DNA of 64,000 bases from Protoeuglena noctilucae. Taxonomy: Eukaryota. Location: positions 930,001 through 994,000 of the forward strand of contig OY253677.1 in NCBI GenBank assembly GCA_958009085.1. The letters run 5' to 3'. The notes below the pieces were generated by a model, which was given only the letters and a program-made list of their open reading frames with translations, did not search any database and was not told the DNA's origin. The position numbers and the translations under genes were made by a program. Numbering within the stretch: the stretch's first letter is position 1; each line of letters opens with the position of its first letter. Of this stretch, positions 29,484 to 62,936 are shown piece by piece.

Positions 29484-32400
29484 ATGCGCTGCGGGGCAGC
29501 AAGGTCGAGTTGCCGTCCCGGCCCGGGCCTACGCGGAGGGAACGGGGTCATACTTCTTTTCATCGTCGTTCTCGTGGCCTGCATAGCTACCGCGCACGGT
29601 GCGTGCGTGGGCAGCGTGCCTGGTTATCGCACTCACATGCTCTGCGCGCAGGTGACCCAAGAGCGGCCTATCTGCTCCCCTCCGCAGCCACGTGCACCCT
29701 TGGGTGTCCGGTGGGGACATGGAAAGACACCTCGCTGTGCCCCCTCACCAACATCTATGGCATTGCGCTCCCTTGCGTCAAGCCCCAGTGGGGAGGGGGG
29801 GCCATATGCACCTGCTGCGCCGATTCGTACGTCATTGGGTGAGGCGCCAGCATGGGACTGCGCGTGACACACACGGCATTGCACAGGCTGTGGGTCAGCA
29901 CTGCCTGCTGCTCGCCCTACCCTCTACGCAGGTGCCTGGGGGCGTCGAATGCTTTCACGCCCCCGCCACCACCTCCGCCCCCGCCTCCTGCGACGCCCGC
30001 CCCCGGCACTACTTTCACTGTCACGCTTGCCAACGCTGGCTCGGCCGTCGCCTTCACTCCCCAGCAGGCGAGCACCTCCTGCTCGCCCTGGCAGAGACTG
30101 CTACCACCACTGGCTATCCGACCAACCAGATGTCCCCGCCATGTCCCCGCCCGCAGACGGTGGTCGTGACCACGAGTGCCCCAGTCACCATGGCGTCCTC
30201 GTCCACCACCACGCTGCTGACCATCACGTACAGCACCAGGTTGGTCAAGACCGATGCATGGCTTCGTGCGATCAGCCGTGCCACGCGCATGTCTAGCCAA
30301 GCCTCTTGCGCATCGCCCCGCAGTGGGTGGACGGCCTCGGAGGCGTCGTACGTCTTCCAGGACTCGTCCGGGAACACCGTGGGGAAGGCCCCGACGGACG
30401 CGGCCCTGCAGACGCAGCCCTTCACCTCCGTCTCCATCACCCTGACCTGGGCCGGCCCCTCTTCGGGTACGCACGCGGCAAACATCAGCCGCAGAGCATG
30501 CTTGGGGGACTGAGGGGTTAGAGTTCGCTCATGCTTCTGCTGGCTGGTCGGCAGCCGTAAGTGTTCTCGACATGCTCCCTCCCCTCAGGTACGCCCCTGG
30601 CCCTGGGCGTGGCTTACCTGGACGCGGGCGTCTTTGTCGCCTCGGGGGGCGTCAACGTGACCAGCAACGCGGTGCGGGTGGGGTACGACGGCGTGGACCC
30701 CACCGTGACGTTCTCCGCCCCCCAGGTCAACAACGGCTACGCCAGCGACCTCTCCATCGCCGTGGAGATGGACCTGAGCGGCCCCGCGTACGGGTGGCAG
30801 TGGTCGAAGTTGAACCTCACGGGCGGGACCATCACGTACCCCACCCCCACGCTCGCCAGCACCATGGAGGCGTCGTCCATCTTCAGCATGGTGCTCACCT
30901 TCGACCACAGCGGGGGACCATCGCGCTGGGCGTGCCGGCGGGCACGTTTACCGACGAGTACGGCCGCAGCAACGCGGCGGCGTCCCNNNNNNNNNNNNNN
31001 NNNNNNNNNNNNNNNNNNNNNNNNNNNNNNNNNNNNNNNNNNNNNNNNNNNNNNNNNNNNNNNNNNNNNNNNNNNNNNNNNNNNNNNNNNNNNNNNNNNN
31101 NNNNNNNNNNNNNNNNNNNNNNNNNNNNNNNNNNNNNNNNNNNNNNNNNNNNNNNNNNNNNNNNNNNNNNNNNNNNNNNNNNNNNNGGGCGTGGTGGTCG
31201 TCGGCGTGGCGGGCGCCCGCGCGGCCGGCGCCGGTCTCTGGTCCTGGTGGGGCAGGCGGCGGGGCCGGGACCCTGCTCAGGTCGCGGCGTCCCTCCCCGC
31301 CACGCTCCTCTTCCCCAAGCCCGAGCTCATGGCCTTCGCGGCCACCATGAGCGGCGTCACCAACGCGTGCGGGGCGCTCGTGTCCCTCCGCACGGCCGCG
31401 GGCGTCGCGGTGGGCGTCGCCGTCATGGCCGCCTGGAACCTCCCCTTCGTGGGGTTCGTCACGTGGTGGGTGCTGCTGCGGTGGGTGGCCCGGGACCGCC
31501 GCGCCACCTTCGTGGTCGAGGAGGACGAGCTGGGGCAGAGCAAGGACCGCCGCTCCGTGGCCTTCATCCCCGGGGAGTGGCGCGACGCCGACCCCAAGAC
31601 GCGCTTCCTCGACCGCTACGGCCACCTGTTCACCGCCTTCGCGGGGCCGTCCGAGGTCGAGCGCGAGTGGGTGGAGGAGCGCAGGGGGATGGCCGAGGCC
31701 CAGCAGCGGCTGCGGGAGGCGGCGGCGCAAGTGCGGCTGCGGGTGGCCCCGGGGGAGGTCGAGCCGGGGGAGGGGGGGGCCCAGGCGGGGGACGACGCCG
31801 AGGACCCCAATGCGGCCTTCATGGGCCCCGTGGCCGTCGAGGAGCGGCGGGGCCACGTGGCGGGGAAAGTGGCGACGGGGGACGCGGGCCACGGCCTGGC
31901 ACGGGGCCACTCGCTGCGCGGGGCGGGGCCGGCGCGCCGCGTGGCGATGCGGGTGCTTGCGGCGTGGCGGGTGATGCCCTTCGAGGTGCGGCTGCTGTCG
32001 TGGACGGCGTCCTCCCTCAAGACGGTGGCCGTGGCGCTGCTGTCGGGCCTGGCCGGGGTGTCGCCGCGCGCCTGCACGGCCGCCATCGCCGCCGTGGCGG
32101 TGGGCCACGCGGGTATGACCATCACCTGGTGCCCCTTCACGGAGGCGGGGGAGCTGGCGACGGAGATCGCCAGCGTGCTGATCGAGGCCCTCAACGCCAC
32201 GCTGGTGTGCTCCATCGCCTTCGCCCCCTCCCTGGCCAACTCCCGCGTCGTCGACGCCGTCATGGTCGGCCTCACCCTCGTGCTCCTCGTCGTGCACATG
32301 GGGTATCAGGCCTACATGCTCCTCGTCGTGCGGATCATGGCGCGCTTCTACCGCGACAACCGAGTGAGGCAGCGGGCGCGCATGCGTGTTAGCAGGGGCG

Positions 32401-51769: not shown

Positions 51770-53341
51770 TTAGGGCGAGGGCACGAAGCGGCTGGCGGCG
51801 TAGGCGAACCCTGCGGGGATAACGCGAGGGGGGGGATTAAGACATGCAGGCGGCTGGTGTCATCGCAACGAGGGAAGTTGACATCGCGACATCCCAGCCA
51901 GCACGAGGGACGTTGTTATGACACCGACTTGTCCCATTCCCGCGCTTGCTCCACCGCCGCTCACCATTGTTGGTGCCGGGGTCGGCGAGGTGCGCCTTGA
52001 GGTTGGCGATGGGGCCCTCGCCCGTCACGATGGCCTGGACGAAGAAGCCGAACATGGAGAACATGGCCAGGCGGCCGTTCTTGATCTCCTTCACCTTGAG
52101 CTCGGCGAACGTGTCGGGGTCGTCGGCCAGGCCCAGGGGGTCAAACGCCTCGCCGGGGTAGAGGGAGTCGAGGCCCTCGCCCGCCGGGCCGCCGTTCACG
52201 CGGTACGCCTCGACGGCGCCCATGAGCAGCACCTGGGGGACAGGGTCGGGGCGAGGTGGTGTAAGATGACTGCTCCAGCAGTGCAGTCGTTGCTCATCAC
52301 CCTCATCGCCCCTGCCTTGCTCCCCAGCCCTCCCCGCGCTCGCCTGGCAGATGAGCGTGGCGATGATGCTCTTGGCGTGGATGAGGGCGTTGGAGCCGAG
52401 GTAGTTGAGGCCGTTGTCCTGGAAGATCTGGGCGCCAGCCTTGAACCACACGGGCTCAGCGAACTTGACGCCGTTGTCGGCGAGCAGCTCGGGCGTCACG
52501 CAGCCAAGGGCGCCGAGCATGGCCCAGCGGGCGTGGATGACCTCGAGCTCCCGGTTGCGGCGGAAGGCCTCGGGGTCCGCCGACAGGCCCGCCGAGTCCC
52601 AGCCGTAGTCACCGGGGAACTCGCCCTTCAGGTACGACGGCGGGTTCGTGAACGGGCCCAGGTACGTGGCGCGGTTGGGGCCGTACCACTCGACCGCGGC
52701 GCGGGTCACGCGGCGGGTGCCCTGGGAGCAAGGAGTGGGTGGGGCTGATACGTCGATCCGGTCCAATCCTGCCGACCCGCGCCATGCAGGGCGCAGCGCG
52801 AGCGAAAACGCAGATGTCGTGGCCGAGATCGGAGCCCTGGAGAGCGCGATCGCGTGAAAGGACGCCGGCCGAGTGCTTTGCACGAAATCTAGGTTCGGGC
52901 GCGCCCGCACGGCGAGGGACGCACAGCCACGCACAGCGCGGCCTACAATCGGCGTAAAGAACTCGCTTACGCAAGTCTCGAGACCCGATCCGAGCCCCTC
53001 GAGCCCGGGCCGAGGAGCGGGCATGTCCCGAATCGGAAAGCGAACCCATGCCCCGCACGCCGCGGCCAGTGGGTGAGCGGGGGGCGCGGTCGCGTACTCG
53101 GCTTTTAAAGAGCGGAACAAAGCGCGCAGGCGGTCCAGGGAGCGCCTGGGTCGGCAGGGCTGGGGCTGGAACCAGCTCTGCGCCGGCTACACGGTCCGGG
53201 CGGGAGCCCCATGCATGCGATCAGGCACTCGAAACGACTTCTGTTCGGAGGACGACGCGGGGGCCCGATCATGAGGACGAGAGAGCTCACCTTGCCGGCA
53301 GCCGCGGGGGCCGCGAGGGTCTTGCCAAGGAACGACGCCAT
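51770..53341 (-). CDS. LHCBM: Major light-harvesting chlorophyll a/b-binding protein of PSII (LHCII)
   Basis: [97 protein letters not shown]; 3 introns. Confidence 0.97.
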
Positions 53342-56052: not shown

Positions 56053-56252
56053 NNNNNNNNNNNNNNNNNNNNNNNNNNNNNNNNNNNNNNNNNNNNNNNN
56101 NNNNNNNNNNNNNNNNNNNNNNNNNNNNNNNNNNNNNNNNNNNNNNNNNNNNNNNNNNNNNNNNNNNNNNNNNNNNNNNNNNNNNNNNNNNNNNNNNNNN
56201 NNNNNNNNNNNNNNNNNNNNNNNNNNNNNNNNNNNNNNNNNNNNNNNNNNNN
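56053..56252. other. Assembly gap (200 N)
   Basis: Run of N. Confidence 0.99.
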
Positions 56253-57866: not shown

Positions 57867-58848
57867 CGCGCCAGAGCCTGTGCCTGGCATGTTTCAGAAC
57901 CGTTCCTGGTTTCCACGGCGGCCCGCGGAGCAATCAGGCCGTGTGGCTCTACCCACGTTCGCCTGTGCTCGCGGTGCCTTTTGAGCCTCTTGTGCCTCTC
58001 TATGGCCTGGACCTATCCAGCCTGGCTGCCCCGCGCGTTGGCACGGGTGCCCCATGGCTGCATGTCTACACCTAGCCCTTCCTACCCTAGGCACGCCCCC
58101 CGCAGTGGCCGTGGGCAGAGCACTTTTCCCAGTCTTTGCGACCTGCAGCCCGCCAGCCCTTCCGGGTCTGTGATGTGACCCGAGTGACGGCGAGGCTGCC
58201 CGCCATGTTTCCTTACGTTAACGCGCTCCTTTTGAAGCCTGACGCTACGGCTGCAGCTCCGACACACCAGCCTGGCAACTTTGGGTCGCTGAGAGCTGGA
58301 AAAAGCTTCGCGCTGTCAGCAATGTGTCATGCGTTTGTCAGCGTGGCAAAGCCCCCCCGTCGGGTCGCCGGATAGCTGGCAGGCTACCACGCCAACCCTA
58401 GGGCCACTGCCTGGCACCCGCGCATCGGCCGATGCTTCGTCTCATCAGTCCATTGTCGTCGCACGTTGGCTTTCGTTGAGCTGCCGAGCCTCGGCGTCTC
58501 GAGGAATGGTCTCCGCGCGTCTGCGGTGGGGTGTCTCGAGAACCTCGCGCACAGCGAGCTGCAGCGGGGCGCGGTTTCCACGCCATGTGCCATGTGTGGC
58601 GCAGGAGTGTGTAGCATTAGAGTGGGGCCCGTTTGCTGCGTGGTCGTCGCGCGGTTCCGCCGGGCGAGGACAGCGCAGTACCAGGTGACTACTCGCACTT
58701 GCATCGCACCCGAGGCCGGGCGAAACTGGCGGCTTGGCGCATAGGTAGAGCACTTGTCAATGTCACTCGAAGAATAGCGCAGCGTTGCAACAAAGAACTG
58801 GCCCTTGCCGGTCTCAGGGCGTGTGCGACGGGGGCGGCGCCCCCGGCG

Positions 58849-61235
58849 ATGGGAGTGTCGGTCGCGAGGACGCGCGACGCGGTGAAAGGGGAGGCGGGCG
58901 TCGATAGCAAGCAAACGCGAGTGGTGGTCCTGCTGCACGGGCTCGGTGAGGCACCAGCGGCGGCGCAGAGCTGCTTTTCGCACCGCAGCACGTGCCCAGC
59001 CACGCCTTCCCCGTCGCCGCAGCGCGCTCGTCCGGGTGCATGCGTGGGATCGCCGCGACGCTCGAGGAGCACCTCGCCCTGCACGGCCTCTCCGGCCCCG
59101 GCGACCGCTGGGTGGTCCTGAACATCGGCTACCCCACGCGGTCGGGGTCCCTGGAGGCGCTGGTGGGGCAGGCAGCCGACACAGTGCGGCGAGAGTGCAG
59201 GGATCGCGGCGTGGACATCGCGGGCGCGGAGTGGTTCGCCGTCACCCACTCCTTAGGCGGCCTCCTGGCGCGTCACCTCCCCTCGGCCCTGGGCGTCCCC
59301 TTCACGCGCATCGCCATGCTGTCACCGCCCAAGTGAGGCAGGGCCCATGCAGTGTCATCGCCACGCATGACGCAAGTCATACTCATGCCTAGCAGCACTG
59401 CACTGCCTGCCCGATCAAACTAACTGTGAGTGGAGCATGCGTCAACCCCCACCCCCACCCCGCCCCCAGCCAAGGCAGCACCCTCGCCCGCCGCCTCGTG
59501 CGCGGCGTCCCCCTCGTGAGCCCCGCCTTCCGCGCCCTCTTCGGCCCCGTCGCCGACGACCTCGCCCGGGGCGCCAGCACCGACGGAACCCCGTGGCCGG
59601 TGCCTGACGCGGCCGTGGGAGTGGTCATGGGCACGCGCCACCTGTCCCTCGCGCACCCCGTCTCGTGGCTCGCTGCCGCGGGGCGTCTGCTGGGCCCGGG
59701 ACCGTCGGACGGCACCGTGGCTCTGGCGGAAATGGCGCTGGGGGAGGTGCGGGGCACGTACGGCGGCCAGGGGGCACGCGTGTGGGGGTGGCCGGGGTAC
59801 GAGGGGCCCAGGTGAGAGTGTATAGATGCGTGGTGACACATTGAGACCTTGTTTTGGGGGGATTGTCGTTTCGTCAGAGAACAATGCCGTGTCTCTCAGC
59901 GCCTTCGCTCCCTTGGTAGCAGGCCCACCTCATTGCATCCCAGCCAACTACATCCCTCCTGCATAACAAGCCTCACCTGGCACTCCTCACCCTTCCATGT
60001 CCCCCAGGGGTGTGGAGGTGGAGGCGGCTGCCGTGCCTGCCTCTCACACCTTCCTGATGTACAACCAAGAAGCGCAGCTCCTGGCGGCGCGCTTCGTGGC
60101 CCACGGCACCTTCCGCGGTGCAGGGCACGCCCCGGTACTGCCGGCCACCCCAGATGAGAGTCGCAGCAGCGGTGGGGCGGGCGGGGTGTCAGGAAACGAT
60201 GACGACGAGAGGTCCCCAGGCATGGTGGCTGTGGCAGTGGACGGGGCGGGCGCGGCTGCATCCGGGTTCCCTCGCCCCCCGCTTCCGCACGCCCTCCGCG
60301 TGGGGGCGCATGCATTGCGTGCGGGTGGCGTGGTGGCCGTGCCCACCGACACGCTCTACGGCCTGGCGTGCGCGGCCACGAGCAAGGAGGGCATCCTGCG
60401 CCTGTACCGCATTAAGGGCCGCGACGGCGGCAAGCCCGTGGCGGTATGCGTGGGGGACGTGGCGCAGGTGGCCGAGTGTGGGGAAGCCGACCACCTCCCG
60501 CAGGCGACGGTCATGAGCGGTCATGGGGTGGAAGAATCTTAAGCGTACACTCATCAACATACATGTTTGCAAATGCCAACCATTGGTTACTCTTACTTTA
60601 GTGGAGCCTCTTGCTAACTTTGCCCCACACCTTGGCTGTGCTTTACTCGCCCCTTCCTCTGCCATCCCTCTCAGGGTCTCCTGGAGTCGCTGCTTCCGGG
60701 GCCCGTGACGGTCGTCCTGCGCCGCCGCTCCTCCGCGCCCCTCAGTCCCTGCCTCAACCCCGGCGTCCCCACCATCGGCATCCGCGTCCCCAACTGCCCC
60801 TTCATCGTCGCCCTGTGCCGCGCATATGGCGGACCTGTCGCGCTCTCCAGGCGAGATGGCTGATGATGAACAAAAATCGTGTGCATGGTGACACTGCACT
60901 GATATGCAGGTGCAACCAACAGGGTGGTCATTTGCAATCGCCATTCGTCAGTCACCATCATGCGGCTTCCTGTGCAGTCACTCTCTCCTCCTCCCCTTCC
61001 CCGCAGCGCCAACCGCAGCGGCGCCCGCAGTGCCCTGGAGGTCACGGAGTTTGAGGAGCTGTGGCCCCAGCTGTCGGCGGTGTTTGACGGGGGCCCCATC
61101 GCCAGCGGGCGTGCAGGGTCCACGCTGGTGGACCTGACCAGGGAGGGGCTTTATGAGATTCTCAGGGACGGGGATGCGAAAGAGATGGTGGAGGGCGTGA
61201 TGGGGAGGTTTGGGTGGACCAGGTGCAGCGACTGA
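58849..61235 (+). CDS. YRDC: Alpha/beta-hydrolase fused to YrdC/Sua5 (TsaC) threonylcarbamoyl-AMP synthase
   Basis: Hydrolase: VVLLHGL|ARSS, GYPTR, VTHSLGG, SPPN|QGS, SDGTV, ASHTFLM. YrdC: VVAVPTDTLYGLAC, LYRIKGR...KP, LLPGPVTVVL, IGIRVP, ALS|SANRSG, GSTLVDL. Both halves share exon 60008-60503. Confidence 0.85.
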
Positions 61236-61488
61236 CGGACGTGGGTGGGGTGCAGGGGCAAGGGTCGCGTGGACGGGTGCCCGTTGCTTTGTCCGTCAGC
61301 GACTGCGCTGCTTAGTGATCGACGGACACGATTGTCCGCGTAGTAGTGTGCCGAGCACACAGTAACCTTGCTGCGAGTCCAGCTTCACATCTCGAAGGGT
61401 AGCGGCACATCCTCGTAGCAGCCAGCCATTCAACCATGACACAACATACGCCCGCATCGTCCCAGCGTGGCCATCCATGCTTGTTGCA

Positions 61489-62215
61489 TCAGCCCTGCAC
61501 CACCTTCCCATCCTTCCCCTCGAACGTCACGCTGACCGAGTTGACGCAGTGGCGCGTGTTGGTCTCCGTGAAGCCCTCCCCCGTGAAGACGTGGCCGAGG
61601 TGGCCACCGCAGTTGCTGCACGTGATCTCCACGCGGCGCATCCCGTACGAGTTGTCCTCCGTGCTGCGGGCAACCCACAGCAAGAGATGGGGGATGAGAC
61701 GGGAGGTGCAGGGACCCACCCGCTGCTGTTGGATGCCTCTCCTCCCAGGACATTACTACGAATTCATCTGCTCCATTGAGAGCGCTACGTACGCCCTCTC
61801 CACCTTCAGAGCCCACCATACCCCAACCCCCTCACCGCTCCACCGCCCCGGGGAGCTCGCGGTCGAAGGCGGGCCACCCGCAGCCGCTGTCGAACTTCAT
61901 GGCCGACGTGTAAAGAGGCTGGCCGCAGCCCTTGCACTTGTATAAGCCCTCCTCGTAGAATTTGTTCAGCTTGCCCGTCCCTGCAAGGGGCGATGCGTTC
62001 ATCTCGCCACGGTGGCCTGGCCGACCCGCTTTACCCGCCCCACTACTGGTTCGTGTTCTGCAAAACCTACGAGGCCTGGCCCGTCGCCACGCCATTCCGG
62101 CCCCGCACTCACCCGCGCGCTCCGTGCCCTTCTCGCGCAGGACCTGGTAGTCCTGCGCGGACAGGATCTTGGCCCACGTGCTCTCGGGCGTCGACTTGTC
62201 CAGCTTCTCCGCCAT
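61489..62215 (-). CDS. MSRB: Peptide methionine-R-sulfoxide reductase B (Cys-type, Zn-binding)
   Basis: YQVLREKGTERA|GTG, YKCKGCGQPL, KFDSGCGWPAF, RVEITCSNCGGHLGHVF, RHCVNSVS. An in-frame upstream extension to 62398 may be a transit peptide. Confidence 0.95.
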
Positions 62216-62936
62216 GGCGCAGACCGAGGTGCGCAGGAAGCGGGGGTATCCTGCAAACGAAGGCCTTATACGCGCGTTCGGAGTAGCACTGCGGGCCTGG
62301 ATAGAGCGAAACGGTGCAGACGCATCCGTGGCCACGCCCTGGAAACGGGTGCTCCCGCCCGCGGCATCGGAGCTCGCCGGGCCAGATCCCCTGTGCATCG
62401 AGGACAGAAGCTAGCAAGGGAAACGTGGCGATCAGCCAAGGCCGGCAACAGTGCATAAGCGACCCGCACGATTGAAAAGCCGTGTGCCGCGCCCACGACC
62501 AGGCTCGAGTCGCCCGTTTCCTCAAGCACCGCTATCATAATGATGTCTGCTATCTGGGCCGCGGATCTCCCGCTCACCGGGGACCTTGGTGGTGCCCAAC
62601 ACCGTGCGAGCCAGGGACGGCCTGGCGAACGTGGCCATGGGGCGCCTGTGATGCGATTCCGCTGCTGCCGGACGACCTTGGTGGCACAAGCTCAGTAATA
62701 AATGATGGCACCTCGCCGGCTGCGATCATGGCCGGACCGGTCGGACTGACCCTGAGTCCGGGCCGCGGCCGGTGTCGCAGGCGCTGTCGGGGGGTCGCCC
62801 TTGGTAGGGAAGAGAAAAACGGACGCGCAGTGTCGCGCAATCTGCCGGAACCGGCCAAGTTAGTGTGCGCGGGCTGGCCCACCTCGCGGCAGCCGAACCT
62901 CGCGCTTTCGCGCCTGTCACCTGACGCGTAAGAACC

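Follow-up and report, generated by a model that had tools for sequence, protein, structure and literature searches.

The question raised by this locus is whether two enzymes of quite different kinds are made as one protein and, if so, why. Within a 64,000-nt stretch of the Protoeuglena noctilucae genome (contig OY253677.1, positions 930,001 to 994,000; hereafter the window), a sequence-only reading had described an α/β hydrolase of the lipase/esterase type that runs in frame, through a G/S/D-rich linker, into a YrdC domain, and had proposed either a bifunctional enzyme or a former bicistronic pair that lost its stop. Here, we find that the two domains are encoded by a single gene, that the fusion is, judged by alignment, kept in a distant relative, and that the two halves are likely to be independent modules. 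Coordinates are positions in the window, and residue numbers refer to a 549-codon model starting at ATG 58849. The region (58000-62500) has a GC content of 0.60-0.78, eukaryotic character and short introns.

The model starting at ATG 58849, which was built from stop-to-stop frames and RNA joints, has six exons and ends with a TGA stop (Table 1). Eight public runs contain the stretch, of which four are RNA libraries (X1 to X4) from a single metatranscriptome study. All the introns of the model are covered by joints in contigs of X2, X3, and X4 (58945>59023, 59332>59470, 59811>60008, 60503>60675, and 60850>61007). The last two joints were each found in all three runs, with a shorter side of only 26 nt for 60503>60675 and a side of 176 nt for 60850>61007. 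An X3 contig of 1621 nt joins 58341-58681, 58815-58944, 59022-59332, 59470-59806, and 60003-60504, and runs from the leader across the entire hydrolase and the linker to the first third of YrdC. Run X1 contained only unspliced contigs and no joints.

In three runs, RNA covers the exon at 60008-60503, and with it the hydrolase end, the linker, and the beginning of YrdC, without gaps. This agrees with the sequence-only reading, which had placed an in-frame junction inside this exon: its boundaries are exact and the RNA cover is unbroken. In 60110-60230, where that reading had named a stop or an indel as refuting the fusion, the RNA contigs show neither. More generally, there is no stop at the junction, no indel is listed in the RNA contigs relative to the genome, and they differ from it at two positions only, 59197 (G>A, Cys91Tyr) and 60275 (C>T, synonymous). 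A mis-assembly, or read-through of two adjacent genes, would have to be reconciled with a junction lying within one exon, with RNA contigs that were assembled independently of the genome and match the window at ≥99%, and with the same architecture, in one open reading frame (ORF), on five independent metagenome contigs of another species. We found no point supporting such an artefact and consider it next to impossible. This is a single gene, expressed as a single spliced mRNA with a single ORF that encodes both domains.

The start of this ORF is probably not ATG 58849, as the sequence-only reading had it, because the frame stays open to ATG 58506 after splicing. A further intron (58685-58817) is present upstream, the corresponding joint 58681>58815 (cut at +3, GT..AG) being seen in X2, X3, and X4, and once it is removed, the frame continues upstream without a stop as far as ATG 58506, which is in frame and has an A at -3 and a G at +4. 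A start at this codon (58506-58684 plus 58818-58848) adds 70 residues. In the related gene on metagenome contig L005, which is described below, the counterpart exon has no in-frame ATG, and that gene must therefore also begin in an upstream exon. The start is probably ATG 58506, giving an ORF of 619 codons. The 70-residue extension contains 10 Arg, 13 Ala, 9 Ser, 2 Glu, and neither Asp nor Lys, and this Arg/Ala/Ser-rich composition makes it a likely candidate for an organelle-targeting sequence. Two of the six introns of the fusion gene have GC..AG ends that are confirmed by RNA, intron 4 (60504-60674) and intron 5 (60851-61006), with GC donors at 60504 and 60851. An alternative exon 4 donor at GT 60510 was dropped, since the RNA joints place the GC donor at 60504.

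As for the C-terminal half, the PF01300 profile matches exons 4, 5, and 6 in register, with E values of 1.9e-17 (profile positions 2-59), 6.3e-12 (67-122), and 3e-05 (108-178), respectively, which supports the earlier description of a full-length YrdC domain. In the fused relative (protein cluster P0015), the match runs over profile positions 1-178 (E 2.6e-44). With the TIGR00057 equivalog (cut-off 123.2 bits), which was scored on single exons only, exon 4 reaches 57.8 bits, exon 5 reaches 28.5 bits, and the last exon has no match. The translated model contains Lys386-x-Arg388 (60414-60422, within the junction exon) and Ser474-x-Asn476, that is, the KxR...SxN tetrad that distinguishes YrdC/Sua5 from YciO according to two papers (PMC3223725 and PMC10321239). 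Against the Protein Data Bank (PDB), the YrdC half of the relative matches threonylcarbamoyl-AMP (TC-AMP) synthases with E values of 1e-22 to 1e-19, compared with 1e-12 for YciO. A further signature is position 138 in Escherichia coli numbering, where, according to PMC10321239, Thr or Ser marks TsaC and Pro is found in Sua5; Thr is reported there for as many as 99% of eukaryotic TsaC proteins. This position is occupied by Ser473 (60846-60848) in the window and by Thr in L005, and Thr is found in 55 of the 55 YRDC homologues that we compared. Of the columns conserved at ≥90% in these homologues, 53 of 59 are kept in the window when scored on single exons, and one of the six missed columns is an intron-split codon that is kept after splicing. 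No match to PF03481, the SUA5 domain, was found in the window exons or in the Pfam scans of the P0015 set. Among the matches listed, the nearest sequence relatives of the P0015 YrdC half are plant and animal YRDC proteins. Judged by these features, the C-terminal half is a canonical eukaryotic YRDC of the TsaC type.

The N-terminal half was traced through exon 2, which contains the nucleophile. A word-index search of longer proteins gave 519 candidates, none at E ≤0.001, and a phmmer search of the PDB gave no significant match (best E 0.76). HMMER against 1.84 billion representatives returned 10 matches at E ≤0.001, eight of which were inspected (P0017 and P0022 were left out): a 98-aa fragment 99% identical to the window, P0015, P0019, four bacterial-type proteins of 198-275 aa, and P0014. 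The last is a repeat protein, and its match was judged spurious. P0019, an 865-aa protein from Pedinophyceae sp. YPF-701 (CAG9464741.1), is closest to the hydrolase half among its named relatives; a large insert precedes its catalytic His, its tail is long and of low complexity, and it has no YrdC domain. The bacterial homologue P0020 scores 43.4 bits with Abhydrolase_6 (PF12697, cut-off 26.3), in line with the resemblance to small bacterial α/β hydrolases noticed from the sequence. A scan of prokaryote genomes with alignment A2, which consists of bacterial rows only (alignment A1 being too divergent for this use), recovered at least 592 relatives among 600 matched stretches, in many phyla.

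In an alignment of 86 rows (A4), where identity to the fused relative is 46-52% for the exons of the window and 24-32% for the bacterial rows, the columns for HG, T-H-S-x-G-G, P-P-N-x-G-S, D-G-x-V, and the His are almost invariant. The window keeps His30-Gly31, Ser109, Asp216, and His263 at these columns, so that the complete Ser/Asp/His set with its oxyanion HG stands as first described, and its PPN(Q)GS motif, which begins in exon 59023-59332, is divided by the intron that follows. By these motifs, the N-terminal half is an α/β hydrolase and a member of a widespread family of stand-alone bacterial enzymes of ~220 aa. When the A4 profile was compared with the PDB, the best matches were to Cif-like proteins (2.5e-08), followed by lipases and the phospholipase PlaB (~1e-05), and look-alikes proposed by a language model, which we use only as a lead, agree with a lipase-type fold. 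An AlphaFold2 model of the L005 hydrolase domain, from which strand β-1 (encoded by another exon) was left out, has a mean predicted local distance difference test score (pLDDT) of 81.9 and a predicted TM-score (pTM) of 0.83. The closest solved fold is the phospholipase domain of PlaB, although we do not file the protein as a member of the PlaB family.

These surface- or membrane-active lipases as nearest folds, together with inserts in the algal domains that have low predicted confidence and are missing from the bacterial enzymes, could also suggest that the hydrolase half is non-catalytic and serves as a membrane or lipid anchor, or as a scaffold that positions YRDC. Pseudo-enzymes, however, usually lose catalytic elements, whereas the window, L005, and the Pedinophyceae protein each retain all four; we regard a non-catalytic role as most improbable. 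With its catalytic residues intact, this half most likely acts as an esterase, lipase, or phospholipase.

How far the fusion extends beyond the window is answered by the gene of P0015, which was found on five metagenome contigs (L001-L005). When the model was compared with L005 by tblastn, a single high-scoring segment pair aligned residues 33-548 with L005:4945-6420 at 45% identity (E 3e-132). This segment is free of stops and introns; the hydrolase and YrdC lie in one uninterrupted exon. L005 also carries a Vps16 gene, which is why we take it to be a eukaryotic contig, and intron 1 falls in the same codon (after HGL) and in the same phase in both genes. On this alignment, the fusion is kept in a distant relative at 45% identity. 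The architecture looks rare, in keeping with the sequence-only reading, which knew of no N-terminal hydrolase fusion, because in a search with P0015 (260-830 aa), none of the 120 of 177 matches listed, apart from P0015 itself, extended over more than half of the query. Besides the window, P0015 is the one other fused cluster that our protein searches found.

Where the two proteins differ is the linker. Residues 302-344, which are rich in Gly, Ala, Ser, Asp, and Pro, have no counterpart in L005, whose junction is short. The linker of the window contains an in-frame Met (Met322), 23 residues before the end of the insertion, and the sequence-only reading had pointed to it as a possible separate start for YrdC. 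YrdC might then be produced mostly alone, with the fused product being minor, and because transcript starts are invisible in contigs, the RNA data leave room for such an internal start. This Met is not conserved, however: L005, without the 43-residue insertion and without a Met at the junction, still has a single ORF. Moreover, RNA contigs in three runs cross the linker unbroken, and several ATGs precede Met322 on the mRNA. We give this explanation very little credence.

Phylogenies of the two halves agree on the nearest relative. In a tree of the YrdC half (42 rows, after five fragmentary rows, P0002, P0003, P0008, P0011, and P0012, had been removed), the window and L005 are sisters (Shimodaira-Hasegawa-like approximate likelihood ratio test support of 92) inside eukaryotic YRDC, and their grouping with the chlorophyte clade is not rejected by the approximately unbiased test (p-AU 0.43). 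In a tree of the hydrolase half (85 rows), the two are again sisters (96), and they form a clade with the Pedinophyceae protein (100), apart from the 82 rows of bacterial type, which comprise 80 genome loci together with P0016 and P0020. A further alignment (A3), combining hydrolase-only and YrdC-only rows, was discarded since it placed hydrolases on YrdC columns.

The bacterial genes were examined for a link to YrdC. No YrdC-like ORF was found within ~4 kb in any of 80 bacterial loci of the hydrolase family (L006-L085), although the same YrdC hidden Markov model recovered five of five bacterial control genes; PF01300 genes are present elsewhere in all five bacterial genomes tested. Nor did the 80 loci show a conserved neighbour, the commonest family occurring in six of them once antisense ORFs over the hydrolase gene were excluded. 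Bacterial gene context thus offers no functional hint. The origin from a former bicistronic pair finds no support here: none of the 80 loci pairs the two genes, the YrdC half is of the eukaryotic type, and the hydrolase sits in an algal clade with an unfused Pedinophyceae protein.

The picture that best accounts for these findings is that of a protein with, in order, a probable targeting extension, a Ser/Asp/His hydrolase of the lipase or phospholipase kind, a flexible linker of variable length, and a TsaC-type YRDC. The YRDC half would make TC-AMP from threonine, bicarbonate, and ATP, the first step towards the universal tRNA modification threonylcarbamoyladenosine at position 37 (t6A37), and its conserved residues make this its most likely activity. 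Both halves would fold as separate modules, with no shared active site, and the fusion would serve their joint expression and their delivery to one compartment. We consider it likely that the halves are independent modules joined for co-expression and co-delivery. We favour this reading because the linker differs by 43 residues between species and because the junction is poorly predicted: in a full-length model of the relative, the domains are confident, but the junction has a pLDDT <50 and the pTM is 0.57, compared with 0.83 for the hydrolase alone.

Several points weigh against parts of this reading. The RNA evidence consists of short-read contigs from one study, in which starts, ends, and the phasing of isoforms are not visible, and the joint between exons 4 and 5 has a side of just 26 nt. 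Unspliced contigs extend over intron 4 (60475-60701) in X2, X3, and X4, and translation through this intron would terminate at 60540-60542; these contigs are likely to be pre-mRNA or DNA in the libraries. One X2 contig skips exon 3 in frame (joint 59332>60008, with a 30-nt side), which would yield a product without residues 136-249, including the catalytic Asp216. On the hydrolase side, the exons of the window, scanned singly, match no Pfam or NCBIfam family, and the L005 hydrolase domain scores 18.7 bits with PF12697, below its cut-off of 26.3. Finally, the YrdC half was modelled on a thin, unpaired alignment, which accounts for the low pTM of the full-length model and makes it weak evidence on domain contacts.

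A functional coupling of the two halves is the principal alternative to independent modules. The hydrolase might act in the YRDC pathway, in the turnover or proofreading of TC-AMP or on an ester of organellar tRNA. This idea draws on the retention of the fusion across deep divergence (45% identity), with the fused genes being sisters in both trees, and on the presence of a PDE12-like nuclease N-terminal to YRDC in other chlorophytes. Human PDE12 removes spurious poly(A) from mitochondrial tRNAs. In addition, an acyl-adenylate should be chemically capable of acylating a serine nucleophile. However, the bacterial family is unlinked to tsaC (0 of 80 loci, with the commonest neighbour at 6 of 80), and the homologue from Pedinophyceae carries no fusion. 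The linker is long and variable, its structure is poorly predicted, the model shows no confident domain contact, and the nearest folds are lipases and phospholipases rather than enzymes of nucleotides or tRNA. A role in the YRDC pathway thus seems unlikely to us, and so does the idea that the hydrolase corresponds to the PDE12-like nuclease found at this N-terminal position in other green algae. The most specific form of this proposal is that the hydrolase is dedicated to the t6A pathway, where it would take up or hydrolyse threonylcarbamoyl-adenylate, as a safety valve or for transfer, or would free organellar tRNAs of a 3'-terminal ester before they are modified; this we judge very unlikely. 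If it were true, the YRDC fusions of green algae would be a natural set of tRNA-maturation modules. If, on the other hand, the halves are merely co-expressed, the gene is a modest curiosity of gene evolution.

The features of the gene are collected in Table 1.

Table 1. Features of the hydrolase-YRDC gene in the window
Feature	Position	Strand	Basis or remark
mRNA 5' leader, to the limit of the RNA contigs	58341..58505	+	contig starts at 58341 and 58342
Upstream ORF, 15 codons, start ATG 58432	58432-58479	+	within the 5' leader, before the probable start 58506
Probable first coding exon	58506..58684	+	joint 58681>58815 in X2, X3, X4; translation
Exon with the earlier ATG 58849, strand β-1, and oxyanion His30-Gly31 (58936-58941)	58818..58945	+	RNA; alignment A4
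Hydrolase exon, nucleophile Ser109 in THSLGG (59250-59252)	59023..59332	+	RNA; alignment
Hydrolase exon, acid Asp216 in SDGTV (59708-59710)	59470..59811	+	RNA; alignment A4
Junction exon: catalytic His263 (60045-60047), last hydrolase helix, linker, first third of YrdC	60008..60503	+	RNA; PF01300
Linker insertion, 43 residues (302-344), Met322 at 60222-60224	60162..60290	+	tblastn alignment, composition
Middle YrdC exon, ending with Ser473 and the first two bases of Ser474	60675..60850	+	RNA; PF01300
Last YrdC exon: rest of Ser474, Asn476 (61011-61013), stop TGA 61233-61235	61007..61235	+	RNA; PF01300

Downstream of the fusion gene lies a convergent gene for methionine sulfoxide reductase B (MsrB; 61489-62410, minus strand), with a SelR domain over two exons. 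RNA contigs connect this gene with the 3' end of the fusion gene, running over 61004-61663 and then across a minus-strand intron (61664-61835), and since they join both genes, the two 3' untranslated regions seem to overlap. The higher RNA depth at the 3' end was not used, because depth is given as one figure per contig and the 3' contig merges with the convergent MsrB transcript. Elsewhere in the window are a gene for a chlorophyll a/b-binding protein (51837-53186, minus strand; PF00504, E 5e-48) and two assembly gaps of 200 N each (30987-31186 and 56053-56252), the second ~2 kb upstream of the leader of the fusion gene.

YRDC/TsaC is among the few proteins common to all cells, and its product TC-AMP is short-lived. 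A conserved fusion would show what a cell keeps beside such an enzyme, and it provides a first functional lead for the large family of small α/β hydrolases in bacteria (at least 592 relatives). The architecture is invisible to routine annotation because the hydrolase half falls below Pfam thresholds and only PF01300 is recognised.

How, then, does this protein compare with known systems? With eukaryotic YRDC and bacterial TsaC, it shares the full PF01300 domain, the KxR/SxN tetrad, a Thr or Ser at position 138, and the lack of a SUA5 domain. It differs from them by the ~300 residues (370 from the upstream start) of hydrolase and linker that stand in front, and from eukaryotic YRDC by the Ser at the signature position where the homologues compared all have Thr. 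The sequence-only reading had taken eukaryotic YRDC to be normally a lone domain, which is not true of green algae. Here, YRDC is often the C-terminal part of a ~900-aa protein with a PDE12-like 2',5'-phosphodiesterase (PF21171 and PF03372; P0005-P0010 and P0144). The best long matches of the junction exon are such proteins, of ~930 aa, with PDE12-like_N, Exo_endo_phos, and YrdC domains, from Ulva, Apatococcus, and Elliptochloris; 56 PDE12-like-YrdC proteins, mostly from Chlorophyta, form one cluster in the Atlas. As in the window, YrdC is C-terminal and a hydrolytic enzyme N-terminal in Ulva mutabilis UM024_0071.1, Apatococcus lobatus WJX74_008549, and Elliptochloris bilobata WJX81_001906, and their YrdC halves share up to 52% identity (in Ulva) with that of the window. 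The partners differ, however: these proteins have an Exo_endo_phos phosphodiesterase that includes a PDE12-like N domain, and the fusion gene has an unrelated α/β serine hydrolase. Neither Exo_endo_phos nor PDE12-like_N was found in the exons of the fusion gene or in 23 upstream ORFs (25 ORFs scanned in all). Attaching a hydrolytic enzyme to the N terminus of YRDC seems to be the rule in green algae; in many species the enzyme is a PDE12-like nuclease, and in this one it is a serine hydrolase. Our literature searches, which covered listings and the starts of abstracts, found no paper on either YRDC fusion, although Supplementary Table 1 of PMC10321239 may list such proteins.

With the ~220-aa bacterial esterase/lipase family (Abhydrolase_6; P0020 and L006-L085), the hydrolase half has the motifs HGLxR, VTHSxGG, PPNxGS, DGxV, and HTF in common, equally spaced and in the same order, and the bacterial enzymes are 24-32% identical to the algal domain. 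Unlike it, they are single-domain proteins without the algal inserts and are never beside tsaC in the 80 loci. The N-terminal phospholipase domain of PlaB (PDB 6zth) has the same unusual T-H-S-x-G nucleophile motif, which is THSTG in PlaB according to bioRxiv 10.1101/2020.09.01.246603 and THSLG in the window and L005. The identity to PlaB is only 15-19%, and PlaB has its own C-terminal domain, required for activity and for control of the tetramer, which is absent from the fusion protein, where the linker and YrdC are found instead.

A YrdC-like domain also occurs as a module of larger proteins in Sua5, HypF, TobZ, and bacterial Sua5 fused to a low-molecular-weight phosphatase or to CoaE (Atlas rows and PMC10321239). 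In these proteins, the partner comes after YrdC or belongs to the same pathway, and none of them has an N-terminal α/β hydrolase. That YrdC is fused to many partners among the Atlas rows tempers the surprise of finding one more. On the evidence of its sequence, hydrolase-YRDC is a new domain architecture, put together from two known families in a narrow lineage of algae.

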